Positions 16,608-58,362 of a stretch of 64,000 nt of DNA are shown piece after piece (the stretch's first letter is position 1; each line of letters opens with the position of its first letter). The translations under genes were made by a program, and so were the position numbers. The stretch comes from Gammaproteobacteria bacterium (GTDB lineage: Bacteria; Pseudomonadota; Gammaproteobacteria; Ga0077536). The notes beneath the pieces were generated by a model. The model was not told the origin of the DNA and did no database searches. It worked only from the letters and a program-made list of their open reading frames with translations. Location: contig JBFWUN010000008.1 of the NCBI GenBank assembly GCA_050247235.1, forward strand, positions 11,219-75,218. Direction: 5' to 3'.

Positions 16608-18180
<1,573 letters not shown>

Positions 18181-24082: not shown

Positions 24083-25608
<1,526 letters not shown>

Positions 25609-25627
25609 TACGCGCCGGCCCCCCCGA

Positions 25628-34762: not shown

Positions 34763-34849
34763 GCCGGGATGGCGGAATTGGTAGACGCGCTGGACTCAAA
34801 ATCCAGTATGGGAAACCATGTGTGGGTTCGAGTCCCACCCCCGGCACCA
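34763..34849 (+). tRNA. tRNA-Leu (anticodon CAA), with encoded CCA
   Basis: GCCGGGATGGCGGAATTGGTAGACGCGCTGGACTCAAAATCCAG..long variable arm..GTGGGTTCGAGTCCCACCCCCGGCACCA. Anticodon loop CT-CAA-AA. Colinear with E. coli tRNA-Leu(CAA). Confidence 0.93.
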
Positions 34850-35052
34850 CCGCCTCGCGCGGCCCCCGTACACCCGGATTTCGTGCTGGTGCGGACCGGC
34901 GCCAGGCGGCACCCGCTGCCCGCCGCCCGGACCGTGAGGCAAATCCGCCACGGAGCGGCGCGGCCGGGCGGCCTTCGCCGTGACTGGTGTGCGGTCGCGG
35001 CGGATGACGCCCGCGGAGCGACGCTGCCGTCGGGTCGTGCGACTCCCTGGGA

Positions 35053-35094
35053 CTGATCACGGTCAGCGGCGCGACGCTCCCGTGTTGCTATCCT
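35053..35094 (+). promoter_or_regulatory. FNR-like box CTGATcacgGTCAG plus extended -10 (TGcTATCCT) at class II spacing
   Basis: The box centre is 35059.5. The -10 hexamer starts at 35089, which is 29.5 bp from the centre. No -35 element. Confidence 0.5.
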
Positions 35095-35131
35095 GTGCCG
35101 GCATGTGCGCGCGACGCAGGAGAAGGCCGCG

Positions 35132-35356
35132 ATGACCCGAACGGATTCCGCCTCCTCACGTTCCGCTGTCCGGGCCTGCGAGCAGACCGAGTCCAGGGGC
35201 AATCGCGCGGCGGCGGGACGGCGCCATGCGCCGGGCGAGACCGCACGGGGGGCGAATACCATCCACCTGTTCGAAGCACCCTGCGCGCTGGCGCGGGGAT
35301 CGTCACCGGCGTATGCCCGGTTGGGGCCGGACCTGGACGGGGTGTGCCGCGCGTGA
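35132..35356 (+). CDS. Hypothetical 74-aa ORF (leader ORF?) coupled to the prs-like gene
   Basis: AGGAG lies 9 nt upstream of ATG 35132. The stop TGA overlaps the GTG of the next gene (GTGA). GC3 is about 78 percent by hand count. The product is Arg/Ala-rich, so it may be spurious. Confidence 0.25.
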   Translation: MTRTDSASSRSAVRACEQTESRGNRAAAGRRHAPGETARGANTIHLFEAPCALARGSSPAYARLGPDLDGVCRA

Positions 35357-36333
35357 AGTACGGTCCCCTCTCATTGTTTGCGCCCGGCGCGGCCGCGGCA
35401 CTCGGAGAGGCCGTCGCGGCTTCGCTGGGTATTCCGCTCGCCTCGCTCGAAGCGCGCGGGTTCGAAGATGGAGAACACAAGCTGCGCCCGCTCACGAGCG
35501 TGCGCGGGCGCGACGTCTTCCTGCTGGAGGCGCTGTACGGTGACGCACAGGAATCTCCGAACGATCGCCTGGTCAAGGCGCTGTTCTTCGCCGCGACATT
35601 GCGTGACCACGGCGCCGCGCGCGTCACGCTCATCGCGCCATACCTGTGTTATGCACGCAAGGATCGCCGCACCAAGCCGCGCGACCCCGTCGCCAGCCGC
35701 TACGTCGCACAACTCGTCGAGAGCGTCGGCATCGATCGGATCGTGACCCTCGACGTGCACAATCCGGCCGCCTACCAGAATGCGTTCCGGATCCCCGCCG
35801 AACATCTCGAGGCGGCGCCGCTGTTCGCCACCGAGATCCTGCGCCGCTGCGGAGACGCCCCGCTGTGCGTGGTGTCGCCGGATGCGGGCGGCATGAAGCG
35901 CGCGGAGACTCTGGCCGAGCACCTGGAACGGCGGGGCGGACGCCCGGTCGAGCGGGCGGTGATGCAGAAGAAGCGGAGCGCCGGCGTGGTCAGCGGCGAA
36001 GGGTTTGCAGGCGACGTTGCCGGACACACCGCGATCGTGGTGGACGACCTGGTCAGCACCGGTACGACGCTTGCACGTGCCGCCACGGCTTGCCGGGCGC
36101 GCGGGGCGCAGCGGATCCTGGCCGTTGTGACGCACGGCCTGTTCTCGCACGACGCCAATGCCGTGCTGAAGGACATGCCGATCGAAGCGCTGCTGGTGAC
36201 CGATACCGTCCCACCCTTCCGTCTCGATCCGTCCCTGCATGAGAGGTTGCACGTGCTGTCCGTCGCGCCGCTGCTCGGCCGCGCGATCCGGCGCCTGCAC
36301 GAAGACGGATCACTGGCGGACCTGGACGCCTGA
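35353..36333 (+). CDS. Ribose-phosphate pyrophosphokinase family protein (divergent Prs-like)
   Basis: Lies in the frame of ORF 35095..36333. GTG 35353 gives a 326-aa product. Contains YLCYARKDRR, TLDVHNPAAYQNAF and the PRPP loop IVVDDLVSTGTTL. The sequence upstream of the GTG does not look coding. Confidence 0.75.
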   Translation: MKYGPLSLFAPGAAAALGEAVAASLGIPLASLEARGFEDGEHKLRPLTSVRGRDVFLLEALYGDAQESPNDRLVKALFFAATLRDHGAARVTLIAPYLCYARKDRRTKPRDPVASRYVAQLVESVGIDRIVTLDVHNPAAYQNAFRIPAEHLEAAPLFATEILRRCGDAPLCVVSPDAGGMKRAETLAEHLERRGGRPVERAVMQKKRSAGVVSGEGFAGDVAGHTAIVVDDLVSTGTTLARAATACRARGAQRILAVVTHGLFSHDANAVLKDMPIEALLVTDTVPPFRLDPSLHERLHVLSVAPLLGRAIRRLHEDGSLADLDA

Positions 36334-37368
36334 AGACCCGGGTCGAGCACGCGCCGCGTATGCGGCGGCGAGCTCGAGGTACCGGGCGGCCCGTGCCAGC
36401 CATCGCGCGTGTTGTGCGACCGGGCAATCGAGCAGGTGCCACGCAGACAGTTTCGCGCGCAGCACCGCCCGGGTCGCGGTGTAGAACGCGGTGAGTGCGG
36501 GCGGAATGACCTCCGCGCAGGCGTCGGCATACGCCTGCAGCACCGCCGGCCCCACCCACGCGACCCCGGCGACCTCGCACTCCAGGCCGAGATAGGCGAA
36601 CTCGTCCACCGGATCGACAACCCGCAGCGCGGAATCGAACTCCAGGCAATCGATCACGACCGGTGGCGTGCCGAGATACAGGTGCTCGGGACGCAGATCG
36701 CCGTGCCCCTCGACGATGCGCCCGTCGCGCGCACGCGCTGCGAGCAGTGGCGCAGTGCGCGCGCAGGCCGCGGGCAGTGCCACGCCGAGCGTGCGCAGGA
36801 TTCCGCCCGCCAGCCGATAGCGCGGATGCGCCAGTTCGGCGAGGTTGTCGGCGAAGTCACGTTCGAAACGCCGCACGTAGGCGTGCGGATCACACGGCAC
36901 ACGCGGCGCCGCGCGGTAAAACGCACACAGCAGCGCGGTCACCGGCGCCAGGTCCGCGCGCGTCAGCCGGTGCTCGCGGATCAGCGCATCGAGCATCTGG
37001 CGCGTGTCGAGCCGGCGCATCTTCACCAGCCATTCGACGATCTCGCCGTCACCGTCGATCGCGAGGTGTCCCGCGTTATCGCGCGTCAGCGCAGTGACAC
37101 CGAGGTAGACGTCGGGTGCGAGTCGTCGATTGAGCGCGATCTCGGCGTGGCAGTGCCGCTGGCGGGCGTCCAGGGTGGCGAAGTCCACTGCCGCCCGCGT
37201 AATCGGCTTCTTGAGTTTGTAGACAAACCCGTCGGTCAGAAACACCCACGACATGTGCGTTTCGATCACATCGACCGCCTGCACAGGGTGCGGGTAGTGC
37301 GCGGGGTCCCGCAGGAACGCGACCTTCTCGTGCAGGGTGGGCGGCGGGGACGGCCTCAGGTCGTTCAT
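36310..37368 (-). CDS. Aminoglycoside-phosphotransferase-like (protein-kinase-fold) family protein
   Basis: 352 aa. [19 protein letters not shown].., catalytic-loop-like [10 protein letters not shown] and IDCLEFD. Its 3' end overlaps the convergent prs-like gene by 24 bp. Confidence 0.6.
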
Positions 37369-37450
37369 GCGGATCGGGCTCTCGCGACGCGGACCTTCGC
37401 GTCATTCTCGTCGTTCGCGCGCGGCGCGACCAGCACGCGAACCGGGGCAC

Positions 37451-37492
37451 TTGATCGCCGTCAGCACTGCTCCGGGCCGCCAGGCCGATAAT
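37451..37492 (+). promoter_or_regulatory. FNR-like box TTGATcgccGTCAG plus -10 GATAAT at class II spacing
   Basis: The box centre is 37457.5. GATAAT starts at 37487, which is 29.5 bp from the centre. AGGAGG at 37509-37514 follows, then GTG 37520. Confidence 0.55.
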
Positions 37493-37519
37493 GCGACGGA
37501 CGTGAACAGGAGGACCGCC

Positions 37520-39315
<1,796 letters not shown>

Positions 39316-39319
<4 letters not shown>

Positions 39320-40302
39320 CCACCAAGCCCCGCCTGGACCACGCCCACCTGCTGCACCTGCTCGGCACGATGCTCCGCATCCGCGCGTTCGAGTCGAAAT
39401 GCGCCGAACTCTACCAGCGCCAGAAGATCCGCGGCTTCCTGCATCTCTACGACGGCGAGGAAGCGATCTCCACGGGCGTGATGGTCGCGTTGCGCCCGGA
39501 GGATTCGGTGGTCGCCACCTACCGCGAGCATGGCCAGGCAATCGCGCGCGGCATCCCGCTGACGGCGCTGATGGCCGAGATGTACGGCAAGGTGGAAGGC
39601 TGCTGCCGCGGGCGGGGCGGCTCGATGCACCTGTTCGATCGGAGTCGCCGCTTCTTCGGTGGCAACGCGATTGTCGGCGGCGGACTGCCGCTGGCGGTCG
39701 GAATTGCGCTTGCCGATCACCTGCGCGGGACGGCGGCAGCCACGGCCTGTTTCTTCGGAGAAGGCGCGGTGGACGAGGGTGAGTTCCACGAGAGCCTCAA
39801 TCTCGCGGCGCTGTGGAAACTGCCGGTACTGTTCGTGTGCGAGAACAACCTGTACTCGATGGGTACACCCGTCGCGATCGCGGAGTCAGTCACCGATATC
39901 GCCGCCAAGGCCGCCGGTTACGGCATGCCCGGGGTGGCCGTGGACGGGATGGACGTCGTCGCGGTCGAAGTCGCGGCCGCGCGCGCCTTGGAGGCGATCC
40001 GCGCCGGCGGCGGCCCGCAGCTGCTGGAATGCCGCACGTATCGCTTCCGTGCCCACTCGATGTTCGACGCCCAGCTGTATCGCTCGAAGCAGGAAGTCGA
40101 GGACTGGAAGGCGCGCGACCCGATCGCGCGCTTCGAGACGTGGCTCACCGACAGCGGGCTGGTGTTCGCGGACGAGGTGCAGCGGCTCGCGGCCGCCGCG
40201 GACGCCGAGGTGGATGCGGCGGTCGCATTCGCCGAGGCCGGCACGTGGGAGCCGGTGGAAGACCTCACGCGCTTCGTCACCTTGGAGGCGGTGCCGACAT
40301 GA
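39316..40302 (+). CDS. Thiamine-diphosphate-dependent 2-oxoacid (pyruvate/acetoin-type) dehydrogenase E1 alpha subunit
   Basis: Lies in the frame of ORF 38878..40302. ATG 39316 forms an ATGA overlap with the acs-like stop. YREHG, and the TPP motif [31 protein letters not shown]. Confidence 0.88.
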
Positions 40303-41285
40303 GCGCGGAGACCATCACCTACCGGGAAGCCTGCAAACGCGCGATCCGCGACGCCCTCACGCACGACCCGCGCGTGTTCCTGATGGGCGAAGACGTCGGA
40401 CGCTACGGCGGCTGCTACGCCGTGACCAAGGGATTGCTGGAGGAGTTCGGCGACTCGCGCATCCGGGATACGCCGCTGTCCGAAAGCGCGTTCGTCGGCG
40501 CCGGTATCGGCGCTGCGATCGCCGGCCTGCGCCCGATCGTGGAGATCATGACCGTCAATTTCAGCCTGCTCGCGCTCGATCAGATCGTGAACAACGCGGC
40601 GACGATTCCGCACATGTCCGGCGGCCAGTTCGCGGTGCCACTCGTGATCCGCATGGCAACGGGCGCGGGGCGTCAGCTCGCCGCGCAGCACTCGCATTCC
40701 CTCGAGGGCTGGTATGCCCATGTGCCGGGCCTGATCGTGCTCGCCCCGGGGACGGTCGAAGATGCACGCCACATGCTCGCACCGGCGCTGGCGGATCCCA
40801 ATCCTGTGCTGATCTTCGAACACGTGATGCTCTACAACAGCGAGGATGCGCTCGATCCCGCGGTGACCGGGGTCGACATCCGTTCCGCGAAGATCCGGCG
40901 CGCCGGACGCGATGTCACGCTCGTGACGTATGGCGGCAGCCTGCCCAAGACGCTGGCGGCCGCCGACAGCCTCGCGGCGGAGGGCATCGAGGCCGAAGTC
41001 GTCGACCTGCGGGTGCTGCGCCCGCTCGACATGGATACTGTCGCCGCGTCGGTCGCGCGCACACACCGCTGCGTGATCGTCGACGAGGGCTGGCGCAGCG
41101 GGTCACTCGCGGCCGAGATCGGTATGCGCCTCGTCGAGAACGTGTTCTTCGAACTGGACGCGCCGCTCGCCCGCGTCTGCAGTGCGGAGGTCCCGATCCC
41201 GTACGCCGCGCACCTTGAGCAGGCGGCGCTGCCGCAGCCCGGGGCGATCGCGGACGCTGCGCGTGCGCTGGTGAAACCCGCGTGA
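40299..41285 (+). CDS. 2-oxoacid dehydrogenase E1 beta subunit
   Basis: Lies in the frame of ORF 39813..41285. ATG 40299 forms an ATGA overlap. [38 protein letters not shown] is typical of E1 beta. Confidence 0.88.
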
Positions 41286-42478
41286 CCGATTTCCTGATGC
41301 CGTCGCTCGGCGCCGACATGGTGTCCGGCATCCTGGTCGAATGGCACGTCGAGCCGGGCGCCAGGCTGCAGCGCGGCGACATCATCGGTGTGGTGGAGAC
41401 GGAGAAGGGCGCGATCGACATCGAGGTGTTCGAGGATTGCGTCGTCACCGAGCTCGTCGTCGCGCCGGGCACGGAGGTGAAGGTCGACGGCGTGCTCGCC
41501 CGCTTGCAGGTGGCCGGTGACGTCCTGTCGCCTGTGGCGGCATCCGCTGCACCACCCCTGCCGCGTGCGCCGCGCGGGCCACCCGCGGCCCCGATCCCAC
41601 CCGTCGAAGGCGCGAAGCCGGCAGTGCGCGCGCCGTTACCGGCCACCGGGACTCTGGCGAGCCCGGCGGCGCGCCGACGCGCGGTCGCGCTGGGCGTCGA
41701 TCTCGCCGGCGTGCAGGGCACCGGCGTGGGCGGCGCCGTGTGCCTGGCCGACGTCGAGCGCATCGCGGCCGCGGCGCCCGCGGCCGCCGCACGCAAACCC
41801 CGCGGCGGCTTCGATCCGACCGCGATGCGCCGTGCGATCGGCCACGCGATGGCCCGTGCGAAGCGCGAGATCCCGCATTACTACCTCACCCACGCGATCC
41901 CGCTCGGCGCCGCACTCGCGTGGCTGGCCGGGTTCAACCGGTCTCGCGCGGTGACGGAACGCCTGCTGCCGGCCGCGCTGCTGCTGAAAGCAACGGGCCT
42001 CGCGGTCGCCCGGCATCCCGAACTCAATGGATTCTTCGAGCACGACGCTTTCCGCCCCGCGCGCGGGGTGCATCTCGGATGGGCCATCGCGCTGCGCGGC
42101 GGCGGGCTCATTGCACCCGCGATCCACGACGTCGATCGCCGGCCGCTGCCCGAGCTGATGGCCGCACTGCGCGACCTCGTGCAACGCGCGCGCGGTGGCG
42201 GCCTGCGCAGCTCGGAGCTGATGGACCCCGGCCTCACGGTCACCAGCCTCGGCGAGCGCAGCGCGGACACCGTCATTCCCGTGATCTACCCGCCGCAGGT
42301 CGCCGTCATCGGTTTCGGCAGCGTCGTGGACCGCCCGTGGGTCGTGGCGGGTGCGGTGACCGCACAGCCGGTGGTCAATGCGAGCCTCGCCGCCGACCAC
42401 CGTGTCAGCGATGGCCACCGCGGCGCGCAACTGCTGGCGGACATCGCGGACCGACTGCAACACCCGGAATCGCTATGA
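41282..42478 (+). CDS. Dihydrolipoamide acyltransferase E2 (lipoyl domain, subunit-binding domain and catalytic domain)
   Basis: 398 aa. The GTG start overlaps the E1 beta stop (GTGA). Lipoyl-lysine context [13 protein letters not shown], a Pro/Ala linker, the PSBD-like [23 protein letters not shown] and catalytic DHRVSDG. Confidence 0.88.
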
Positions 42479-42711
42479 AAGACCCTGACATCCGCGCGCT
42501 CGTTGCCGACGTGCTCGGCGGCATCGCGCCCGAAGCCGATCTCGCCTCCGTCCGCGACGACGAAGACCTGCGGATGGCGTTCGATCTCGACTCGATGGAC
42601 TTCCTGAATCTCGTGGTCGGATTGCACGAACGCACGGGGGTCGACGTGCCGGAGGCGGACTACCCCAGACTGTTCACGCTCGGAGGAATCGTCGCGTACT
42701 TCGCGAACTGA
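42475..42711 (+). CDS. Stand-alone acyl/peptidyl carrier protein (phosphopantetheine-binding)
   Basis: 78-aa product inside the frame of ORF 41740..42711. ATG 42475 forms an ATGA overlap with the E2 stop. FDLDSMDFLNLVVGLHERTG matches the carrier-protein DS(L/M) helix-II motif. Confidence 0.7.
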   Translation: MKDPDIRALVADVLGGIAPEADLASVRDDEDLRMAFDLDSMDFLNLVVGLHERTGVDVPEADYPRLFTLGGIVAYFAN

Positions 42712-42754
42712 CGGTCCGGGCGACGCGGCAAATTCATCCTCGCGGCGCGCCGCC

Positions 42755-44380
<1,626 letters not shown>

Positions 44381-44396
44381 CGGAGCCTCCCGGCGA

Positions 44397-44482
44397 AATC
44401 GGGGACAGACCCCGATTCCGGTGAATCCGTGATCGCGACTGATTGCGGAAATCGGCGAAATCGGGGTCTGTCCCCGGTTTCG
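44397..44482. repeat. Pair of inverted REP-like hairpin units (REPIN-like doublet) in the groEL-like leader
   Basis: Unit 1 is AATCGGGG-ACAGA-CCCCGATT (44397-44417). Unit 2 is CGAAATCGGGG-TCTGT-CCCCGGTTTCG (44456-44482). The two units are mutual reverse complements over 18 nt. The direct repeat CGGCGAAATCGGGG occurs twice. Confidence 0.6.
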
Positions 44483-44491
44483 GGTGGACGC

Positions 44492-44533
44492 ACGATAGCG
44501 GGAACGGGTCCGCAGCGCGTTGATCGGCCTCAA
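44492..44533 (-). promoter_or_regulatory. FNR-like box TTGATcggcCTCAA plus -10 TATCGT at class II spacing (drives the groEL-like gene)
   Basis: The box is 44520-44533, centre 44526.5. The minus-strand TATCGT starts at 44497, which is 29.5 bp from the centre. This is the best palindrome of the five (9/10 to TTGAT-N4-ATCAA). Confidence 0.55.
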
Positions 44534-44549
44534 CGGCGCGCAGCGCGGA

Positions 44550-45938
44550 TTACACTGCGATCGACTGCCCGTAGGCCGCCTCGACGGCACGTACCCCGCA
44601 GGCCCGGTCGAGCGCCGCGGCCAGCCCCGCCATCGCGACGGGCTCGCCGTGCACGAGCACGACCGGGGGACGACCCTCGATGTGCGCGTACCATTCGAGC
44701 AGCCCGCGCTGATCCGCGTGAGCCGACTTGCCGCCCACCGTGTGGACGGTCGCGTTGACGGCGATCGTCTCGCCCCACAGGCGGATGTGTCGCGCCCCTT
44801 CCACGAGTGCGCGTCCGAGCGTGCCCGCGGCCTGGAAACCCACGATCATCACGTGCGCCTGGCGGCGCCACGCGTTGTGCTTGAGATGATGCTTGATGCG
44901 CCCGCCAGTGCACATGCCGCTGCCGGCAATGATGATGGCCCCGCCGGTAAGCCGATTGAGCGCCATCGATTCCTCGCTCGTCCGGGTGAAGTGCACGTTC
45001 GGCAGGTGGAACGGCCGCTCCAGGGTGTCCAGCCATTCACGCGTGCGCGCATCGTGCAGGCGCGCGTGCCGCGCATACACCGCGGTCGCGTCGATCGCTA
45101 GCGGGCTGTCGAGGAAGATGCGCCAGCGTTCGAGCCCCCAGTCTTCATAGTGCTGGCCGAACACGTAGAGCAGTTCCTGTGCCCGTCCGACCGCAAACGA
45201 CGGGATGAGAATGTTGCCGCCCGCCGCGCGCGCACTGGCGACGATCTCGCCCATCTCCCGCCAGGTTGCATCCCACGCGCGGTGCACCCGGTCGCCGTAA
45301 GTGCTTTCCATCACGACGAGGTCCGCATGGCGGACGAGCTCGGGATCACGCAGGATGGGTGCGCCGCGATGACCGAGGTCGCCCGTGAAGACGATCCGCC
45401 GGCTCGTGCCGGCGGCGTTCACGCGCAGTTCCACGATCGCCGAACCGAGGATGTGCCCGGCGTCGCGCAGGGTGACGTGAATGCCGTCCAGGATCTCGGT
45501 TTCGACGCCGTACTCGATTGCGCGCAAGAGCGGCTTTAGCCGCTGCACGTCCGCGCGCGTGTACAGCGGCGCCACCGGGGACAGGCCTTTCCGTTCGCGC
45601 TTGCGGTTCTCCCACTCGGCATCCTTTTCGTTCAGGTAGGCCGCATCCTCGAGCAGGATCCCGCAGAGGTCCGCCGTCGCAGGATGCGCATGCACGGGCC
45701 CCCGGTAGCCCTGCATCGCCAGCAGCGGCAACCGGCCGGAATGATCCAGGTGCGCATGGGTCAGCACCACGGCGTCGACATCTTCCGGCCGGAACGGAAA
45801 CGGATCGCGGTTGTGCCGTTCGTGACGGGGCGTGCCCTGCACCAGTCCGCAATCCACCAGGATTCTCCGACGGCCGGTTTCGACCAGGAAACAGGCGCCG
45901 GTGACTTCGCGCGTGGCGCCGAAAAACCGGATATTCAA
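44550..45938 (-). CDS. MBL-fold beta-CASP family hydrolase (RNase J/CPSF-like RNA-processing nuclease)
   Basis: 462 aa. The start is TTG, with GGAG 7 nt upstream. (M)[35 protein letters not shown] (HxHxDH), and beta-CASP motifs further on. Confidence 0.85.
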
Positions 45939-46020
45939 ACTAAGGCTCCCCGGCAGTGCGACGGCGGGATCCTAACAGCGCGGACCAGAGATGCGAGGCG
46001 CCAGTCGCCTTTGCCGTGCG

Positions 46021-46317
46021 TCATCCGCGGACTCCGAGCACGGGGCTGACGTTGCCCGCCACGGCCCGCCCGCGCAGTGCGATCCGGCTGCGGATGGTCG
46101 CTGCGCGCGACGTGCCCGTCATGTCGTCGTGCAGCGCGGGGAACGCGACGCCGCAGAACTGCGTGGCGCGTGCCCCGCCCGGCCATGCCGCTTCCGCCTG
46201 CGCGTCGTCCTGCGCGCCGAGCGCCGCGAGCGCCAGCAGGACGATCGACGCGCGCGAAGTCCGTGAAGGACGCGCCTGCCGGGTGACCGGTCGCGTACTC
46301 GGTACTCCGTTCTGCAT
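46021..46317 (-). CDS. Hypothetical small protein with possible signal peptide (98 aa)
   Basis: ATG 46317 with GGAG 6 nt upstream. High GC3 in frame. Hydrophobic segment SIVLLALAALGAQDDAQA. An FNR-type promoter is predicted upstream. No homology recognised. Confidence 0.4.
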   Translation of the reverse strand: MQNGVPSTRPVTRQARPSRTSRASIVLLALAALGAQDDAQAEAAWPGGARATQFCGVAFPALHDDMTGTSRAATIRSRIALRGRAVAGNVSPVLGVRG

Positions 46318-46346
46318 CGCTGGCTCCGCGGGTGACTGCAGGTACG

Positions 46347-46387
46347 TTTCTACGCCGCCGCGCGCGCCGCCGTTTGACCGCGATCAG
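46347..46387 (-). promoter_or_regulatory. FNR-like box TTGACcgcgATCAG in the divergent region between the small ORF/MBL operon and the sensor kinase
   Basis: The box is 46374-46387, centre 46380.5. The minus-strand TAGAAA starts at 46352, 1 bp off ideal class II spacing. No convincing plus-strand -10 at matching spacing. Confidence 0.4.
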
Positions 46388-46483
46388 AAATCGGATCGCA
46401 GCGGGCTCGATTGATCAGGGTCCGTCCGTCCCGATACAGTGCGTGCATGCACGGGGTGTCACAGGATGGCGCGGGAGGTGTAC

Positions 46484-48091
46484 ATGTCGGCCAGTGAACA
46501 CCTTGGCAGGACGGGCGGACCCGAGCGCCACGACAGCCCCGTCGATCTCGGCACCGCCGCGGAAACCGCTGCGCTCGCGCGGCTCGCGACTGCGACCGAA
46601 CGCCTGTGGACCGCGGACTCGCTCGAACAGGGGCTCGGCGAGATGCTCGACGCGGTGCTGTGGCTGCTCGGGGCGGACATGGGCTACGGCCAGCTCGCCG
46701 ACACCCGCAGCGCCCAGCTGGAAGTGATGACCAGCCGCGGCTTCACGCCACCGACCGCGCGGATGCTCCAGGGGTGCACCGGTCCGCTCGCGGCTGTCTG
46801 CACGCCGGGACAATGGCCGCGGGAGCGCGTGGTGTGCGAGGAGATCGACTCCGACCCCGCGTTCGAGCACTGCCGCGCGTTCGCCGCCGAGGCGGGTTTC
46901 CGGAGCGCGCAATGCACCCCGCTCCTGGGGAGTGATGGCAAGCTGCTGGGCGCGCTGGCGACGTTCTGGTCATCGCCGCACCGGATGACGGATGCGGATC
47001 GTCGCCGCCTCGATCTCTACGCGCGCCAGGCCGCCGCGTATATCGAGCGCTGGCACCTGGAGCGTGAACTGCGCGTCCGCGAGGAGCTCCTGCGCGCGGT
47101 CCTCGACACGGCGGCCGATGCCATCGTATCGATCGACAGCAACGGCGTGATCACGCACGTGAACCGCGCCACCGAGCGCATGTTCGGATACACCGCGACG
47201 GACCTGCTGGGCCGCAACGTGAGCATGCTGATGCCGTCGCCGTACCGCGAAGAGCACGACCGCCACCTGTCGCGCTACCGCGCGACCCGGCAGTCCCGCA
47301 TCCTGGATCGCAGCCGCGAGCTGCCGGGCTGTCGGCAGGACGGCAGCGTGTTCCCCGCGATGATCACGATCGCCGAAGTCGATCACCTCGGGATGTTCAC
47401 CGCGACGATCCGCGATCTCTCGGAACGGCGCGAACTGCAGCAACGCCTGCTCGACATCGCGGACGAGGAGCAACGCCGACTCGGCCAGGAACTGCACGAC
47501 AGCGTGCAGCAGGAACTGACCGGCCTGTCGCTCTTCGCGGCCTCGCTCCACGAGCTGCTGAAGGCATCACCGGATGCCGATCACGCGCGCCTGGAGCGGG
47601 TGCGCCAGATGACCGCGCGCCTCGAAGACGGCCTGACGGAGGTGCACCGGCAGGTGCAGGAACTCGCGCGCGGGATCATGCCGGTACAGATCGATGCGGC
47701 GGGACTGGAAGCCGCGTTGCAGGAACTCGCCGCACGGACCACCCGCGACGCCGGCGTGCCGTGCGCCTTCCACAGCGCCGGCGACGTGGCGCTCGAGAGC
47801 AACACCGAGGCGACGCACCTCTTCCGGATCGCCCAGGAAGCCGTCAACAACGCGCTGCGCCACGCGCGCGCAAACCGGATCGACGTGGTGTTGACGGGCC
47901 GCCGAGACATCACGCTCGAAATCCGCGACGACGGTCGCGGTTTCGCGCCCGGTGCCGGCGATGCGTCGAACCGCGGTATCGGGTTGCGGACGATGGAATA
48001 CCGCGCGGGCCTGCTGGGCGGTGTGCTGCGGATCGAACCGGGTCCGAAATCCGGGGTGACCGTGCGCTGCGTGGTCCCCCGGCGCGGCTGA
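46484..48091 (+). CDS. Soluble sensor histidine kinase: GAF, FixL-like (heme-type) PAS, HisKA_3, HATPase
   Basis: Lies in the frame of ORF 46439..48091. ATG 46484 sits behind GGAGG. No TM segment. The PAS segment GRNVSMLMPSPYREEHDRHLSRYRATRQSRILDRSRELPGCRQDGSVFPAMITIAEV..FTATIRDLSERRE parallels the rhizobial FixL heme pocket. H-box LGQELHDSVQQELTGL. N and G boxes are present. Confidence 0.85.
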   Translation: MSASEHLGRTGGPERHDSPVDLGTAAETAALARLATATERLWTADSLEQGLGEMLDAVLWLLGADMGYGQLADTRSAQLEVMTSRGFTPPTARMLQGCTGPLAAVCTPGQWPRERVVCEEIDSDPAFEHCRAFAAEAGFRSAQCTPLLGSDGKLLGALATFWSSPHRMTDADRRRLDLYARQAAAYIERWHLERELRVREELLRAVLDTAADAIVSIDSNGVITHVNRATERMFGYTATDLLGRNVSMLMPSPYREEHDRHLSRYRATRQSRILDRSRELPGCRQDGSVFPAMITIAEVDHLGMFTATIRDLSERRELQQRLLDIADEEQRRLGQELHDSVQQELTGLSLFAASLHELLKASPDADHARLERVRQMTARLEDGLTEVHRQVQELARGIMPVQIDAAGLEAALQELAARTTRDAGVPCAFHSAGDVALESNTEATHLFRIAQEAVNNALRHARANRIDVVLTGRRDITLEIRDDGRGFAPGAGDASNRGIGLRTMEYRAGLLGGVLRIEPGPKSGVTVRCVVPRRG

Positions 48092-48095
48092 GGGC

Positions 48096-48818
48096 TCAGT
48101 CGCCGCCGGCGGAATCCCCGTTCCGGCGCGCCTCGATCTGCAGGGTCCATTGCACGGCGTACTGGACGAGCTCGGTGCCGTTGCGCAGACCGAGCTTCTG
48201 ACGGATCTTCTCGCGGTGGGATTCGATCGTATGCGGGCTCAGGTGCAGCGCCGCGGCGATTTCGCGGGTGCTCCTTCCCGCACCGATCATCGACATCACT
48301 TCCAGTTCGCGATCACTGAGTGCATCCACGCCCTGGCGGTGCGAGCGCGACCCGATTGCCTGCTGCGCGAGTCGTTGCGACATCGCCGGGCTCAGGTACA
48401 GGTCGCCGCGCAGCACGGTGCGGATGGCTTCGAGGATTGCGCCGGACACCTCGCGCTTGTTCACGTACCCCTGCGCGCCGGCGCGCAGCGCGCGCTCGGC
48501 GTACATCGTCTCGTCGAACGCGCTGACGATCAGGATCTTCAGATCGGGCCGGCTGCCGCGGATGCGCTTGATCAGGTCGAGCCCGTGCCCGTCGTGCAAC
48601 GCGAGATCGAGCACCACCAGCGTGGGTGCGGTCGCCGCGATGACGGTGCGCGCCTCCTCCACCCCCGCGGCCTGGCCGCAGATCTCGAAGCCCGGCGCCG
48701 TCGAGATGCGCGCCGCCAGTCCCTCGCGGACCAGCGGATGGTCGTCGACGATGACGATCCGGACGGGACTTCCGTCGCGCGCGCCGCCGCCCGCGCCCTT
48801 GCTGCGCGGAGGGCTCAT
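48096..48818 (-). CDS. NarL/FixJ-family response regulator (REC plus LuxR-type HTH)
   Basis: Lies in the frame of ORF 48096..49091. ATG 48818 gives a 240-aa product. IVIVDDHPLVREGL, phospho-acceptor context LVVLDLALHDG, and the HTH LSDRELEVMSMIGAGRSTREIAAALHLSPHTIESHREKIRQKLG. Confidence 0.88.
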   Translation of the reverse strand: MSPPRSKGAGGGARDGSPVRIVIVDDHPLVREGLAARISTAPGFEICGQAAGVEEARTVIAATAPTLVVLDLALHDGHGLDLIKRIRGSRPDLKILIVSAFDETMYAERALRAGAQGYVNKREVSGAILEAIRTVLRGDLYLSPAMSQRLAQQAIGSRSHRQGVDALSDRELEVMSMIGAGRSTREIAAALHLSPHTIESHREKIRQKLGLRNGTELVQYAVQWTLQIEARRNGDSAGGD

Positions 48819-48855
48819 CGCGGCGCCTGCGGCGCGCCCCGGGCCGGGGGGCAGA

Positions 48856-48876
48856 GGATGGTGGAATCCACCATCC
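48856..48876. promoter_or_regulatory. Perfect 10-1-10 palindrome GGATGGTGGA-A-TCCACCATCC (candidate operator)
   Basis: Read directly in the divergent response regulator / fnr intergenic region. A degenerate third copy, GGTTGGTGGTTCC, follows at 48880-48892. Confidence 0.5.
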
Positions 48877-48984
48877 CCGGTTGGTGGTTCCCCGGCTGGA
48901 GCGCGGCCCGCGGACTGCCGAGGATGGGCACACAGGGACGCGTCGGCCGACCGTTCCGGGACAGCACGCCGAGAAGGAATCGTG

Positions 48985-49716
48985 ATGAATACGTCAACAC
49001 AGACTCGCCTCACCCAGTGCGACCACTGCCATCTCAAACCCCAGTGCCTGGCCGATCGCACACTGGAGAGCGACGCCGCGAAGGAGCTCAACCGGCTCGT
49101 GATCGGCGGGCGCGCATTGCCGCGCGGGGCGTTCCTGTACAGGGAAGGGGAACCGCGGGAGTTCTACTACTTCCTGCGCACCGGCGCCGCCAAGTCGTTC
49201 GCGGTGGACGCGAGCGGCGAAGAACATGTCTACGCGTTTCACTTCCCCACCGAGATGATCGGCGCCGCCTCGCTCGAGCAGGCACGGCACACCGAGTCCG
49301 TGGTGCTGCTGGAGCGGAGCTTCACGTGTGCGATCCCGGCCGAGCCGCTCGAGCGGCTGTGCCGTGCGAACGAGCCGCTGATGCACAGCTTCTTCTCGAA
49401 AGTCTCCGCGTCCTTCGCGCAGGAGCGCCGGGCGCGCCTGCGCGTGGCGCGTGAACAGGTCACCGCGCGGCTCGCCGACTTCGTGCTGGACATCGCCGAC
49501 CGCATGGCGACCCTGGGCCGCCGGGACGATGTGCTGACGTTGCCGATGTCCCGCTACGACATCGCGAATTTCATCGGTGTCGCCGTCGAGACCGTGAGCC
49601 GCGCGTTCCGCGAACTGCAGAATGCCGGGCTGCTGGAAGTCTCGGGCCGACAGATCACGATCCGCTCCCCGCGTGATCTCGCGCAGTACTCCGGGAAACG
49701 TGCGCGAACCGCCTAG
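48985..49716 (+). CDS. fnr: FNR/Anr-type oxygen-responsive CRP-family transcription regulator
   Basis: Lies in the frame of ORF 48268..49716. ATG 48985 gives a 243-aa product. N-terminal CDHCHLKPQC (C-x2-C-x5-C) plus a central SFTCAIP cysteine, as in the E. coli FNR 4Fe-4S ligands. Recognition helix VETVSRAF keeps E--SR. Confidence 0.85.
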   Translation: MNTSTQTRLTQCDHCHLKPQCLADRTLESDAAKELNRLVIGGRALPRGAFLYREGEPREFYYFLRTGAAKSFAVDASGEEHVYAFHFPTEMIGAASLEQARHTESVVLLERSFTCAIPAEPLERLCRANEPLMHSFFSKVSASFAQERRARLRVAREQVTARLADFVLDIADRMATLGRRDDVLTLPMSRYDIANFIGVAVETVSRAFRELQNAGLLEVSGRQITIRSPRDLAQYSGKRARTA

Positions 49717-49735
49717 CCGACGCTGGCGCGTCGGC
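49716..49735. terminator. 8-bp stem hairpin GCCGACGC-tggc-GCGTCGGC between convergent genes
   Basis: Read directly. It lies between the fnr stop (49714-49716) and the stop of the 333-aa ORF (49737-49739). No U-tract. Confidence 0.35.
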
Positions 49736-49736
49736 G

Positions 49737-50738
49737 TCACCGATCGCGCTCCCGCCGGGGCAGCAGCGGAACCACGTTGACGGCCGGCGGCGTGGCCGCC
49801 AGTCCGGCGATCAGGCCGACGACCTCGCCGAACCGGCGGCGCTGAGCGATGTCGAGCCGATAACCCCGCGGGGTTGCCGTCAGCGCGTCCGTGGCGGACA
49901 GCGCCTCGAACGCCGCCAGGCAGGTGCGCGCGAACGGCGGCGGCACGCCGGCACGTCGACGCAGCACGTCCGTCGCCGGGATCCGGCGCCCCGCCGCGAG
50001 CTTGGCGAGCAGATCGGCGACAAACCGCTGGGCCGTCGTCAGCATGCGGGTCAGGTGGGTGCCCAGGCCTCCGCGCACCAGGTTCGCGCGCCAGGCCTCG
50101 GCGTCCACGTGGTTGAGGAAGCAGTCACCTCCGAACCGGCTTTCCGCACCGGGTCCCACCCCGACGACGTCAGCCTCGAACCAGTCCGACAGCACGCGGC
50201 TGAACTGCGCGATGGCGAGATCGTCCTCCGACAGCGCGCGCAGCGAACTCCGCTGCGTGCGCGGCGTGGCCGCTGCGACCCGCCGCTTGTCGAGCGCCAG
50301 GGTGCCCGCGACGGCGGCATACGGCACGGAGCCGTCGGACTGCGCGCCGAGGGAGCGTTCGCTTTCCGGGGTCGGCGCGCTCGCCGGTCGCCAGGACACG
50401 ATGAAGCGCGGCGCCGCCCCCGTGTGGGCCACCACGCTGCCCTGCACGGCGTTGAGCGCGGCGTCACAGGCGACCGACAGCGACCGGCCGGACGCGGGCG
50501 GCACGTAGACGAGTCCGACGATCCGCCGATCCATCGCAACGAACGCGAGCTTGCGTTCACACTCCTGCCGCAGCAGGCCGACATCCTCCGCCGCGTCGAG
50601 ATGGCAGAGATCGAGTTCGATGATCACCGGCGAAGGGACCAGCGATTCGTTGCCGGCCTCCGCCGCGGCCCGGAAATCCAGGTTCGGGATTGGAAACCCC
50701 CGCACTTCGGGTCCGAGTACCCGCTCGATGAAGCTCAC
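49737..50738 (-). CDS. Hypothetical protein (333 aa, no recognisable domain)
   Basis: Long ORF with a GTG start and GAGG 9 nt upstream. Coding-like composition. An FNR-type promoter is predicted upstream. I recognise no family. Confidence 0.6.
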   Translation of the reverse strand: MSFIERVLGPEVRGFPIPNLDFRAAAEAGNESLVPSPVIIELDLCHLDAAEDVGLLRQECERKLAFVAMDRRIVGLVYVPPASGRSLSVACDAALNAVQGSVVAHTGAAPRFIVSWRPASAPTPESERSLGAQSDGSVPYAAVAGTLALDKRRVAAATPRTQRSSLRALSEDDLAIAQFSRVLSDWFEADVVGVGPGAESRFGGDCFLNHVDAEAWRANLVRGGLGTHLTRMLTTAQRFVADLLAKLAAGRRIPATDVLRRRAGVPPPFARTCLAAFEALSATDALTATPRGYRLDIAQRRRFGEVVGLIAGLAATPPAVNVVPLLPRRERDR

Positions 50739-50805
50739 TGCTCGATGCCTCGCTTCCGCTGGAGGGCGGCATCCCCGCCGCCCTGCACCACGCTGGTGTC
50801 GCGAA

Positions 50806-50847
50806 ATCCTAGGCGAACGGGTACGGGCGCAAGCTGATGCCGATCAT
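50806..50847 (-). promoter_or_regulatory. FNR-like box CTGATgccgATCAT plus -10 TAGGAT at class II spacing
   Basis: The box is 50834-50847, centre 50840.5. The minus-strand TAGGAT starts at 50811, which is 29.5 bp from the centre. Confidence 0.5.
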
Positions 50848-50937
50848 TTTCGCGGCGAGCCCGCATCACGTACTCCGCCAGTGCACGGGTTCCGCTCCCG
50901 GATTAGAATCACGGCTCGTTCCAGCGGAGACCCCCCC

Positions 50938-52682: not shown

Positions 52683-52684
52683 CC

Positions 52685-53071
52685 ATGGCCGAGAAACCAC
52701 GCGAACCCGTTGCCGCGGATGCGGCGCTCGAACCCTACTGGGCGGCCGCGCGCGAGGGCCGCCTGCTGCTCAAGCGCTGCCGCGCGTGCGCAAAGGTGCA
52801 CTACTATCCCCGGCCGCTATGCCCGTTCTGCATGAGCGCGGACACCGAATGGCTGGAAGCCGCGGGTCACGGCACGATCTACGCGTGGAGCGTGGAACGG
52901 CGGGCGACCCCGCCCTACGCGATCGCCTTCGTCACCCTGCCCGAAGGCCCCACGCTGATGACGAACATCGTGGACTGCGATCTGGACGCGCTCGCGATCG
53001 GGCAGGCCGTGCGGCTTGCGTTCGAGACGCGGGACGAGCAACCCGTGCCGGTGTTCCGTCCGGCGTCCTGA
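52685..53071 (+). CDS. Zn-ribbon/OB-fold protein (DUF35 family), thiolase partner
   Basis: Lies in the frame of ORF 52499..53071. ATG 52685. CRACAKVHYYPRPLCPFC zinc ribbon followed by an OB-fold-like tail. Confidence 0.75.
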   Translation: MAEKPREPVAADAALEPYWAAAREGRLLLKRCRACAKVHYYPRPLCPFCMSADTEWLEAAGHGTIYAWSVERRATPPYAIAFVTLPEGPTLMTNIVDCDLDALAIGQAVRLAFETRDEQPVPVFRPAS

Positions 53072-55353: not shown

Positions 55354-55357
55354 ACCG

Positions 55358-58359: not shown

Positions 58360-58362
58360 AAC

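Follow-up and report, generated by a model that had tools for sequence, protein, structure and literature searches.

A probable low-oxygen or redox stress regulon with class II FNR-type promoters on a gammaproteobacterial chromosome

Introduction

Between 35 and 51 kb of a window of 64 kb (the whole stretch of DNA that was analysed, and the part of this MAG from an uncultured gammaproteobacterium that the analysis covers), an fnr gene, a sensor kinase and a response regulator share a block with genes of acetyl-CoA and phosphoribosyl metabolism, a chaperonin and a predicted RNase. The locus raises the question of whether these genes form a single regulon and, if so, which protein reads its promoters and in answer to what signal. 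Judged from the DNA and its relatives in other genomes, the block is probably a chromosomal stress regulon responding to low oxygen (or to redox state or NO), in which FNR-type class II promoters form the lower of two tiers.

Five putative promoters without a -35 element

The five FNR-type boxes listed in a first-pass annotation are all present exactly as written there, and each departs from TTGAT-N4-ATCAA by one to three bases. Box 1, CTGATCACGGTCAG (= CTGATcacgGTCAG; 35053–35066), is intergenic and lies upstream of a Prs-like gene; box 2, TTGATCGCCGTCAG (= TTGATcgccGTCAG; 37451–37464), occupies the divergent intergenic region between an APH-like gene and acsA; box 3, TTGATCGGCCTCAA (= TTGATcggcCTCAA; 44520–44533), the weakest of the five with its TTGAG half-site, precedes groEL; box 4, TTGACCGCGATCAG (= TTGACcgcgATCAG; 46374–46387), precedes a beta-CASP hydrolase gene; and box 5, CTGATGCCGATCAT (= CTGATgccgATCAT; 50834–50847), precedes a HemN-C-terminal-like gene. 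A second, weaker site is present near box 4, at 46411.

The -10 hexamers that had been reported at a fixed offset can likewise be read off the sequence. In four cases they start 29.5 bp from the box centre: the extended -10 TGcTATCCT of box 1 (35086–35094, plus strand, with TATCCT at 35089–35094), GATAAT of box 2 (37487–37492, plus strand), TATCGT of box 3 (44492–44497, minus strand, starting at 44497) and TAGGAT of box 5 (50806–50811, minus strand, starting at 50811); the weak TAGAAA of box 4 (minus strand, starting at 46352) is one base off, at 28.5 bp. No sigma-70 -35/-10 pair was found in 34.6–51.6 kb, in agreement with the earlier statement that -35 elements are lacking.

Promoters so built would have a box of the form YTGAY-N4-RTCAR whose centre precedes the transcription start by about 41.5 bp, a position like that in the class II FNR promoters of E. 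coli, and a dimeric CRP/FNR-family activator on the box would contact RNA polymerase as it does there. Such promoters would drive the Prs-like gene, acsA-pdhA-pdhB-E2-ACP, the orphan groEL, the beta-CASP hydrolase gene and the HemN-C-like gene. The APH-like gene may respond too, through box 2, for a possible -10, GAGAAT (37403–37408, minus strand), starts 49.5 bp from the centre of that box and would correspond to class I geometry (-61.5).

Genes presumably served by the boxes

The Prs-like ribose-phosphate diphosphokinase (326 aa; 35353–36333, plus strand) is recognized by Pfam and by NCBIfam TIGR01251, the latter at 256 bits (cut-off 113). Its start codon lies 293 bp downstream of box 1, giving a predicted leader of about 250 nt in which folding analysis found no special fold; a 74-aa ORF within this leader is unusual in its GC by codon position and is perhaps not a gene. 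Convergent with the Prs gene and overlapping it is the gene for the APH/kinase-like protein (352 aa, HGDLRPEH...IDCLEFD; 36310–37368, minus strand), which has no Pfam or PDB match of its own, is 41% identical to the product of an L094 gene with a weak PF01636 APH match (L handles here denote comparison loci or genomes), and is 44% identical to a hypothetical protein of Burkholderia plasmid p2. Prs homologues also adjoin APH-like genes in L094 and L177.

The five-gene operon (37520–42711, plus strand) starts with a PRK04319-type acetate-CoA ligase and continues with PDH-type E1 alpha, E1 beta and a single-lipoyl E2; its last product is a carrier protein of 78 aa whose serine motif is DSM, and an E3 gene is lacking. 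The suggestion that such a carrier-protein-terminated dehydrogenase operon had gone undescribed stands to the extent that a literature search found no published description. To judge from its occurrence in the same order on Methylocystis and Burkholderia plasmids (47–77% identity), it is nevertheless not peculiar to the source genome, being conserved on alpha- and betaproteobacterial plasmids and routinely annotated there.

The orphan GroEL paralogue (541 aa; 42755–44380, minus strand; NCBIfam NF009489, 851 bits) has no adjoining groES. The predicted 5' end of its leader holds a very stable long hairpin (44393–44483, minus strand; -63.8 kcal/mol, z = -6.4), the arms of which are found nowhere else in the window; Rfam matches to microRNA precursors were judged spurious. 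The beta-CASP/RMMBL metallo-hydrolase (462 aa; 44550–45938, minus strand) is assigned by Pfam as first proposed, with its start codon 442 bp from box 4, and its neighbourhood shows no conservation among 80 species genomes. The small ORF formerly paired with it (98 aa; 46021–46317, minus strand) is a gene call only and doubtful: its second codon positions have a GC content of 0.65 versus 0.37–0.54 in real genes, and it has neither a family match nor a special fold. It may be non-coding, and would then be part of a roughly 400-nt beta-CASP leader.

The 333-aa protein encoded convergently with fnr (49737–50738, minus strand), at first called unknown, is by profile alignment a degenerate HemN-C-terminal-like protein. 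Its C-terminal half resembles the C-terminal region of HemN, and it has no CxxxCxxC motif; hhalign against a HemN gives 83% probability (E 9e-6), the match to PDB 1olt has an E-value of 0.12, and its relatives have weak hemN/HutW matches. The family is rare, with 14 representatives among 1.84 billion.

Placement of the boxes

Counted over all 64 kb, the motif shows no enrichment: TTGAT-N4-ATCAA, allowing at most two mismatches, is matched 11 times versus 8.6 ± 3.0 expected, and TGAY-N4-RTCA, at 6 versus 3.2 expected, is within chance; the case thus rests on placement and conservation. The placement is highly non-random. Of 19 TGA-N6-TCA cores in the window, five fall in the 1,499 bp of cluster intergenic DNA (34850–50937) versus 0.08 expected, the highest count in 20,000 shuffles being two, and the cluster's coding DNA, 15.1 kb in all, has none. 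Of the remaining 14, at least 12 lie within genes (dcw genes, bolA, mlaC, otsAB); the two not assigned to called genes are at 17342 and 19256.

This contrast between intergenic and coding DNA was one of the checks that the first-pass annotation had proposed, and a weight-matrix scan was another. The matrix used was an independent one, made from seven boxes of L088 and L090 only, metagenomic loci in which the boxes adjoin the nearest relatives of this FNR; in the 64-kb window it ranked the boxes at 46374, 35053, 37451 and 50834 first to fourth, in that order, and the box at 44520 twelfth. The spacing is constrained too: nAnnnT occupies 2.1% of hexamer positions in the cluster intergenic regions, and yet four of the five boxes have one precisely 29.5 bp away (P about 1.5e-5). 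Taken over three genomes, 10 of 12 boxes do so, with a nominal P of about 1e-12, the count including the boxes that prompted the finding.

The local FNR as probable reader

The likeliest activator would be the FNR encoded within the cluster (243 aa; 48985–49716, plus strand), whose closest solved relative is the FNR of Aliivibrio fischeri (4e-28). As had been noted, it has all four cysteines expected in a [4Fe-4S] sensor that is labile to oxygen, C12-x2-C15-x5-C21 plus the central one in SFTCAIP, and its recognition helix reads ETVSR. Its clade is small and divergent, with no more than 40% identity to canonical Fnr/Anr, and is carried by only 3–4 distinct genomes. The sister genes in L088 and L090 have Usp, HSP20 and Host_attach genes as neighbours, and the boxes there likewise have a -10 starting 29.5 bp away; in L088, L090 and L096, too, a homologue of the 333-aa protein is encoded convergently with fnr.

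Target-level conservation comes mainly from Burkholderia, since the genomes with this FNR clade share few target genes with the window. The acsA operons of B. savannae and Burkholderia sp. JP2-270 carry TTGACGCATGTCAA (a TTGAC-N4-GTCAA box), followed by TAGAGT or TAAATT at the spacing seen in the window, and the closest homologues of the beta-CASP gene, in L086 and L087, have good FNR boxes upstream. Box conservation, a further proposed check, is accordingly found for acsA and beta-CASP; together with the placement, the independent matrix and the conserved -10, the Burkholderia acs box supports the original proposal of a coherent FNR-box regulon, which withstood each computational test applied to it.

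The boxes could also be genuine class II sites read by another CRP/FNR protein encoded elsewhere in the genome, such as a housekeeping Fnr/Anr or a Dnr/NnrR-type NO sensor, with the local FNR having other targets or only modulating. We regard this as unlikely, though to be taken seriously: TTGAT-type sites are common to CRP/FNR paralogues, the Burkholderia regulator over the same type of box is a different CRP/FNR protein from that of the window, the local clade is as divergent as stated, and 64 kb of the genome were covered. Against it, boxes cluster right around members of this clade in three independent genomes, the half-sites preferred there (CTGAC/CTGAT) fit the window boxes better than canonical TTGAT, and the local FNR keeps every DNA-reading residue (E--SR).

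The probable upper tier and the signal

The sensor kinase (46484–48091, plus strand) comprises GAF, FixL-type heme-PAS, HisKA_3 and HATPase_c domains by Pfam. The earlier description of it as a heme-PAS kinase agrees with matches of its PAS domain to FixL heme domains in the PDB (E 1e-27 to 1e-22) and with its equivalents of His200 (the proximal His), Arg206 and Arg220; its homologues bear the annotation 'LuxR family, sensor kinase FixL'. The REC-GerE response regulator (48096–48818, minus strand) has VraR (2e-29), DevR (3c3w, 1e-25) and NarL (1e-22) as nearest structures, with FixJ at 8e-11, in line with its former assignment to the NarL type.

The divergent intergenic region between this regulator gene and fnr holds a perfect 10-1-10 palindrome that had been missed, TGGTGGAATCCACCA (= GGATGGTGGA-A-TCCACCATCC; 48856–48876), which is a probable operator of the response regulator. 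It is unique in the window, and no plausible -10 could be placed relative to it. Its 15-mer recurs upstream of the orthologous kinase in the distant genome L094, and copies with at most two mismatches lie in three L094 intergenic regions; L179 has one 2-mismatch copy, L092 and L093 have approximate forms only, and the intergenic regions of the orthologous locus L178 lack it.

In the two-tier arrangement favoured here, the cytoplasmic kinase and its DevR/NarL-like partner would stand above FNR, so that the heme sensor would act through the regulator on fnr, and FNR on the five class II promoters, its Fe-S state deciding whether the targets are switched on. The cascade would be alike to FixLJ-FixK.

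The signal might instead be NO, CO or general redox/energy stress, and the cluster a nitrosative-stress or dormancy regulon, which we consider rather improbable. Heme domains of the FixL/DevS type bind NO and CO besides oxygen, and NO likewise reacts with the [4Fe-4S] cluster of FNR; the cargo is a generic persistence kit (chaperonin, RNase, PRPP and acetyl-CoA metabolism), with no terminal reductase or high-affinity oxidase among the cluster genes. The closest characterised analogues, lxa, Anr, FixLJ-FixK and DosR, however all have a shortage of oxygen as their main inducer (PMC3721108, PMC12071387).

That the DevR/NarL-like regulator activates the target operons directly, the FNR-like boxes being incidental, is very unlikely: the L094 palindromes do immediately precede genes of dormancy type (BON, APH/DLH, HSP20), but no target intergenic region in the window has a copy with at most two mismatches, DevR-type GGGACT-N-AGTCCC boxes are not above chance, and the FNR boxes are backed both statistically and comparatively. 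From the mismatches of the boxes and the unremarkable window-wide counts one might suspect that the eye had merely picked out random matches to boxes and hexamers in the AT-poorer intergenic DNA; this is hardly credible given the intergenic core count, the recovery by the independent matrix and a -10 offset kept in other genomes.

Relation to known low-oxygen regulons

With a low-oxygen survival regulon as the preferred reading, the cluster is closely similar to those of Burkholderia, Pseudomonas and rhizobia. In the lxa locus a TGA-N6-TCA motif occurs at 17 intergenic points, an Anr-like regulator and a two-component system are present, and BCAM0300, a 'metal-dependent RNase' and thus of the same annotation type as the beta-CASP hydrolase of the window, shows 30-fold induction when oxygen is low (PMC3721108); published work also puts forward a FixL-FixJ-FixK-to-Lxa model (PMC12071387). 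The likeness to lxa and DosR drawn at first pass is incomplete in that their hallmarks, universal stress protein and Hsp20 genes, are absent from the window and present beside the sister FNR genes. It holds in that lxa-like clusters on Burkholderia plasmids share the acs operon and the Prs/APH-like pair with the window, so that the resemblance has shared genes behind it: on plasmid p2 of Burkholderia sp. JP2-270 both are found amid many TTGAC-N4-GTCAA boxes.

Predicted FNR-dependent promoters

The block at 35–51 kb is best described as a low-oxygen stress regulon of the lxa/Anr/FixK type with five predicted class II FNR promoters, lxa being the low-oxygen-activated locus of Burkholderia cenocepacia. 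The first-pass annotation had proposed a coherent anoxia or persistence regulon, and this interpretation is supported by the placement of the boxes, a weight matrix of foreign origin, the offset of the -10 hexamers and the boxes at orthologous targets. By gene calls and Pfam/NCBIfam matches, the block begins after a tRNA-Leu(CAA) gene (34763–34849), which forms its left edge, with a Prs-like gene (35353–36333, +) and a gene for an APH/kinase-like 352-aa protein (36310–37368, -). These are followed by acsA of the PRK04319 type (37520–39319, +), genes for PDH-type E1 alpha, E1 beta and E2 and for a 78-aa carrier protein (ACP; ending at 42711), an orphan groEL (42755–44380, -), a beta-CASP/RMMBL hydrolase gene (44550–45938, -), a called 98-aa ORF (46021–46317, -), a GAF-PAS-HisKA_3 kinase gene (46484–48091, +), a REC-GerE regulator gene (48096–48818, -), fnr (48985–49716, +) and a gene for a 333-aa protein (49737–50738, -).

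Each of the five 14-mer boxes proposed earlier was recovered (35053, 37451, 44520, 46374 and 50834), as was their common geometry: the hexamers TATCCT (with TG upstream), GATAAT, TATCGT and TAGGAT are oriented with the downstream gene and each start 29.5 bp from the centre of their box, and the fifth box is 1 bp off, as had been claimed, having TAGAAA only, at 28.5 bp. In a class II promoter, the activator site is centred near -41.5, which puts 29.5 bp between its centre and the start of the -10 hexamer; such FNR/CRP-dependent promoters lack a functional -35 element and depend on the activator. A consensus scan of 34.6–51.6 kb returned no -35/-10 consensus pair. Because nAnnnT fills only 2.1% of hexamer positions in the cluster spacers, its presence at one offset for four of five boxes has P ~1.5e-5.

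Across the whole window, counts of degenerate forms of the palindrome are unenriched (11 vs 8.6 expected; 6 vs 3.2 expected). In the intergenic DNA of the cluster (1,499 bp), TGA-N6-TCA cores number five against 0.08 expected, with a maximum of two in 20,000 shuffles, and they occupy five of the six intergenic regions of at least 150 bp between 34850 and 50937. The 15.1 kb of cluster coding DNA holds no core; of the remaining 14 in the window, at least 12 are inside genes. Thus, the signal lies in the placement of the cores rather than in their number.

The boxes at 35053 and 46374 are distant from the start codons of the enzyme genes, and the gaps are filled by small ORFs: the 98-aa ORF, called in the MAG annotation, and a 74-aa ORF (35132–35356, +) with a good Shine-Dalgarno sequence and a stop that overlaps the Prs GTG. 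Both have non-coding-like statistics, with GC at codon position 2 of 0.65–0.71, unlike real genes here; each may belong to a long leader or encode a small protein that has escaped recognition. For the Prs and beta-CASP leaders, predicted folding is no more stable than that of shuffled sequences. The groEL leader carries a near-perfect 90-nt hairpin (44393–44483, -; -63.8 kcal/mol, z = -6.4), which starts at about the predicted mRNA 5' end, ends just before the Shine-Dalgarno sequence and has arms with no other copy in the window. It might stabilise the mRNA as a 5' stem-loop, control translation or terminate the upstream beta-CASP gene; an Rfam scan of 34–52 kb returned the tRNA-Leu and spurious microRNA-precursor matches on this hairpin, and nothing more.

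On the strand of the APH-like gene, GAGAAT at 37403–37408 (-) lies 49.5 bp from the centre of the box at 37451–37464, which corresponds to the -61.5 class I position; this single FNR site may therefore drive both divergent promoters, that of the APH-like gene and that of acsA. A second, weaker FNR-like site, TTGATCAGGGTCCG, occurs at 46411–46424, on the kinase side of the same spacer as the 46374 box and 37 bp from it, with no -10 at class II distance.

The local FNR, its sister loci and its neighbour

The cysteine pattern (C12-x2-C15-x5-C21 plus the cysteine of SFTCAIP) and the E--SR recognition helix (here ETVSR), both noticed at first pass, are present and, on alignment, invariant across the clade of the local FNR and canonical Fnr. 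Proteins of the FNR subfamily have four such ligands (C20, C23, C29 and C122 in E. coli), and their oxygen-labile [4Fe-4S] cluster controls dimerisation. The Pfam matches of the local protein (PF00027, PF13545 and PF00325) include the cNMP-binding-like and HTH_Crp_2 domains that mark the subfamily, and among solved structures Aliivibrio fischeri FNR is the closest (E 4e-28). Its clade is small, with members 48–51% identical to it, and is known from three or four genomes; a metagenome scan with the clade alignment returned three or four clade members, the others being canonical Fnr.

In two foreign loci that hold sister genes, L088 and L090, a homologue of the 333-aa protein gene again lies downstream of fnr and convergent with it, with Usp, HSP20 and a thiolase/DUF35 pair beyond. 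In these loci, Host_attach, Usp, HSP20 and a small ORF are preceded by boxes such as CTGACcgtgGTCAG and TTGATcccgATCAG, with GATACT, GACCAT, AATACT and GACACT at the identical 29.5-bp offset, which recurs in L176 and L177 (a Burkholderia plasmid locus). The weight-matrix test suggested at first pass was made with a matrix built from seven L088/L090 boxes alone, without any site of the window. Applied to the 64-kb window, this foreign matrix places the boxes at 46374, 35053, 37451 and 50834 at ranks 1–4; the box at 44520 is weak and ranks 12th.

Host_attach/baeRF (release-factor-like) genes adjoin the FNR clade in L088 (9368–9805) and L090 (9298–9735), in both with an FNR box at class II spacing, and one also stands beside orthologues of the kinase/regulator pair in the distant locus L094 (203–1351). 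This recurrence hints that ribosome rescue or hibernation is tied to these hypoxia regulons.

With E. coli FNR and Pseudomonas aeruginosa Anr, the system shares a palindromic site predicted to be centred at about -41.5, where it would stand in for a -35 element, the E--SR helix, the four Cys ligands and the linkage of fnr to a putative hemN-type gene. It differs in that the local FNR shares no more than 40% identity with canonical Fnr/Anr, its next relatives beyond the clade, in that the hemN-like neighbour appears to have lost the radical-SAM core, and in predicted targets that are stress/persistence genes and not genes of anaerobic respiration. A lead from the literature concerning PA3417 and Anr yielded nothing relevant.

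The family of that neighbour, the 333-aa protein, is very rare, with 14 representatives in 1.84 billion; like the 352-aa protein, the 333-aa protein matched nothing directly in Pfam, NCBIfam or PDB sequence searches; AlphaFold2 single-sequence models of the two were unusable (pLDDT 39 and 35, respectively). HemN/HemW proteins combine a CxxxCxxC radical-SAM motif and TIM-barrel core with a GxGxxAxS segment and the HemN C-terminal domain, and hemN beside fnr/anr is a classical arrangement, seen here as hemN-fnr-usp in the foreign locus L104. The 333-aa protein has a conserved DV(L/V)G(V/I)GPGAxSRF...F.N segment and C-terminal helices, and aligns with HemN residues 321–423 (hhalign probability 83%, E 9e-6); its sole solved match is PDB 1olt (E 0.12), and its relatives match hemN/HutW weakly. 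CxxxCxxC is absent from its sequence, which gave no Radical_SAM Pfam match. It looks like a degenerate descendant of the classical hemN neighbour.

A FixL-like kinase, its regulator and a candidate operator

The PAS domain of the kinase aligns with the heme domains of Bradyrhizobium and Sinorhizobium FixL (BjFixL and RmFixL; E 1e-27 to 1e-25), EEHDRHLSRYR and RSRELPG matching RSRHDSYISRYR and GIGRIVTG, and keeps the proximal His and the equivalents of both distal-pocket arginines, Arg206 and Arg220. It is accordingly classed as a FixL-type heme-PAS, with heme predicted. Beyond this domain, the block resembles the FixLJ-FixK (FnrN) systems of rhizobia, Caulobacter and the Burkholderia cepacia complex in its REC-GerE regulator, in a CRP/FNR-family activator for TTGAT-N4-ATCAA-type boxes and in a probable regulator operator before the fnr-like gene. 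It differs from them in that a GAF domain precedes the PAS and the transmitter is HisKA_3 (PF07730), the NarX/DevS type, and not HisKA (PF00512), the type of FixL. Against solved structures, the regulator is nearer to VraR (2e-29), DevR (3c3w, 1e-25) and NarL (1e-22) than to FixJ (8e-11). Further, the CRP-family protein has the Fe-S cysteines found in FnrN/FNR and absent from FixK, and the window has no fixNOQP or cbb3-oxidase targets. Because of the transmitter, the GAF domain and the affinities of the regulator, the pair is placed outside the FixLJ orthologous group, with a predicted working that is FixLJ-like.

The mycobacterial DosS/DosT-DosR system, also named at first pass, is another comparison. 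DosS/DosT are tandem-GAF kinases with heme in GAF-A, and DevR boxes of the form GGGACT-WW-AGTCCC lie at their targets. A heme-based kinase (predicted, in the window) with HisKA_3 and a DevR-like regulator are common to both, as are, among the types of cargo, an APH-like kinase, a phosphoribosyl-type enzyme and a chaperone. Orthologues of the pair elsewhere adjoin Prs/APH-like, DLH/PRTase (the combination of Rv0571c), BON, HSP20 and baeRF genes, of which HSP20, DLH/PRTase, BON and APH are a further likeness to the DosR regulon. However, the window kinase has one GAF and a heme-type PAS, with heme predicted in the PAS and not in the GAF, and the targets carry FNR boxes, not regulator boxes; DevR-type boxes in the window number three against 3.2 expected, with none at promoters. 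Since they are not above chance, the pair is not a DosST-DosR system.

The divergent spacer between the regulator gene and fnr has no FNR box. It holds a perfect palindrome, GGATGGTGGA-A-TCCACCATCC (48856–48876), present as a single copy in the window. At L094, a locus of 50% GC whose kinase and regulator are 41% and 46% identical to those of the window, an identical 15-mer, TGGTGGAATCCACCA, lies upstream of the kinase gene, and copies of the palindrome with at most two mismatches occur in the baeRF|BON, APH|DLH and HSP20|Dodecin spacers. A copy with two mismatches lies in a spacer of L179, and the intergenic regions of L178 have none; a perfect copy in L035 falls within an ORF and was set aside as a chance match. 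These occurrences allow the palindrome to be taken, with moderate confidence, as the putative operator of the regulator, one so far unreported and a candidate for the wide FixL-like/HisKA_3 two-component class; a literature search for it found nothing. As this putative operator sits in the regulator/fnr spacer, the heme-PAS two-component system probably acts upstream of fnr, and probably also of its own gene, while the cargo promoters would be read by FNR. The whole would then form a FixLJ-FixK-like cascade, the step from regulator to fnr being inferred.

Cargo modules and the likeness to lxa

The order acsA-pdhA-pdhB-E2-ACP is kept, at 47–77% identity, on plasmids of Methylocystis rosea, Burkholderia savannae and Burkholderia sp. 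JP2-270, and on both Burkholderia plasmids TTGACGCATGTCAA precedes acsA, the class II offset being occupied by TAGAGT or TAAATT. The first-pass annotation had regarded this carrier-protein-terminated operon as undescribed: a literature search for an acs-pdh-ACP operon under hypoxia found no paper describing it, but it is a conserved module and not peculiar to this genome. It lacks an E3 gene.

The Prs-type and APH-like genes stand tail-to-tail with a 24-bp overlap (35353–37368), and the pair recurs at L094 (3519–5530) and L177 (~24280–25984), so that it is kept in three lineages: the gammaproteobacterial MAG, a distant lineage of 50% GC and a Burkholderia plasmid, where a nicotinate phosphoribosyltransferase gene also precedes the APH-like gene. 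The 352-aa protein has the motif HGDLRPEH...IDCLEFD and is 41% identical to an L094 protein with a weak APH Pfam match. This conservation suggests that the two genes work together in the salvage of nucleotides or NAD during dormancy.

As an anchor for synteny, the beta-CASP gene was rejected: its neighbourhood is unconserved in 80 species genomes, and neither these nor the two closest metagenomic homologues (L086 and L087) share neighbours with the window, so it is not a marker of the cluster. Those two homologues have good FNR boxes upstream, TTGATACGTATCAA and TTGACGAAGCTCAA. They and the Burkholderia acsA operons are orthologous targets that keep boxes, a comparison of the kind suggested at first pass for orthologous blocks.

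The lxa locus comprises 50 genes, among them an Anr/FNR-like gene with a response regulator/kinase pair (BCAM0287-0289) and a metal-dependent RNase of the metallo-beta-lactamase fold (BCAM0300), and has a TGA-N6-TCA intergenic motif (Sass et al. 2013, PMC3721108). The block shares with it this motif, repeated from spacer to spacer of a single contiguous cluster, and an Anr/FNR-like CRP-family gene plus two-component pair inside the locus. Likened by type and description of the BCAM genes, it further shares a metallo-beta-lactamase-fold RNase and pentose/PRPP-type and acetate/acetyl-CoA metabolism. The lxa-like Burkholderia plasmid clusters go further, with true homologues of the acs operon and of the Prs/APH-like pair and with TTGAC-N4-GTCAA boxes. 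The JP2-270 region has about a dozen such boxes in its intergenic regions, homologues of the Prs and 352-aa protein genes in convergent orientation, and BON, nitroreductase, PRTase, CBS and phaZ genes; its motif is that of lxa and its gene set is of the lxa type (PMC3721108). Because this region combines these with the acs operon and the Prs/APH-like pair, the likeness to lxa noted at first pass is backed by both shared genes and shared promoter architecture.

The differences are that the block belongs to another class (a Gammaproteobacteria MAG) and spans ~16 kb and 14 genes against the 50 of lxa. PHA, class II ribonucleotide reductase and alcohol dehydrogenase genes are missing from the window, which has an orphan GroEL and the HemN-C-like (333-aa) gene instead, and its half-sites tend to CTGAY, not TTGAC. 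Multiple universal stress proteins and an alpha-crystallin belong to lxa cargo; such genes are absent among those called at 23.6–60.2 kb and present beside the sister FNR genes of L088 and L090. A locus of the lxa type is also characterised by being induced strongly and specifically when oxygen is low, and by impaired survival of strains that lack it.

Implications

A more elaborate reading would join two oxygen sensors in series, in an undescribed wiring, with a rewiring of the regulon and an acetyl-carrier pathway; taken as a whole, it seems rather unlikely. A FixL-type heme-PAS would have been grafted onto a DevS/NarX-type HisKA_3 transmitter, and its DevR-like partner would recognise the unreported operator TGGTGGAATCCACCA. 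At L094, this operator would act directly at dormancy genes (HSP20, BON, APH/DLH); in the window, it would have been reduced to a single copy before the Fe-S FNR, which would have taken over the same cargo (the Prs/APH-like pair and acs operon) through class II boxes. The acs operon, lacking E3, may be hypoxia-specific, with E2 passing acetyl to the dedicated carrier protein and not to CoA.

The simpler description as an lxa/Anr/FixK-type regulon adds an uncultured gammaproteobacterial lineage to those with a hypoxia-persistence regulon of the lxa/Anr/FixK/DosR type and leaves the understanding of FNR regulation unchanged. It points to cargo modules that travel together across classes with FNR-type promoters (acsA-pdhAB-E2-ACP, the Prs/APH-like pair and the beta-CASP hydrolase), and offers concrete candidates for the poorly understood metabolism of anoxic survival in obligate or facultative aerobes and a testable operator for widespread, uncharacterised FixL-like/HisKA_3 two-component systems. 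Further work could be repaid by the candidate operator of the regulator, which is undescribed, by the HemN-C-like protein and by the acs-pdh-ACP module with its conserved gene order.

Chromosomal surroundings

The window is core chromosome, with the dcw cell-wall cluster (mraW-ftsI-murEF-mraY-murD-ftsW-murG-murC) at 0.7–12.7 kb, petB at ~20–21.5 kb and hisG-murA-bolA-mlaC-purT-secDF-yajC-tgt-queA at 23.6–34.7 kb. Positions 1–22000 have a GC of 59–63% against 65–71% in the remainder, yet with the dcw cluster and petB they too are core chromosome and not an island. Neither the tRNA-Leu nor its 3' flank has a repeat of at least 13 nt elsewhere in the window, and an integrated island is therefore without evidence.

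Downstream of the cluster, no FNR box was found at any of the Cupin_7, thiolase/DUF35, CMD, MscS and otsAB genes. Directly after the cluster, the MscS channel, otsA, otsB and a GH15 glucoamylase/trehalase-like gene (54250–60156) form an osmoprotection and trehalose module, likewise without boxes. The pair of Thiolase_C_1 and zf-ChsH2/OB (DUF35) genes at 51519–53071, with weak FNR-box matches only (51496 and 51502), accompanies the FNR clade in every locus seen: L088 (14619–16202), L090 (14963–16533) and L096 (5441–6570).
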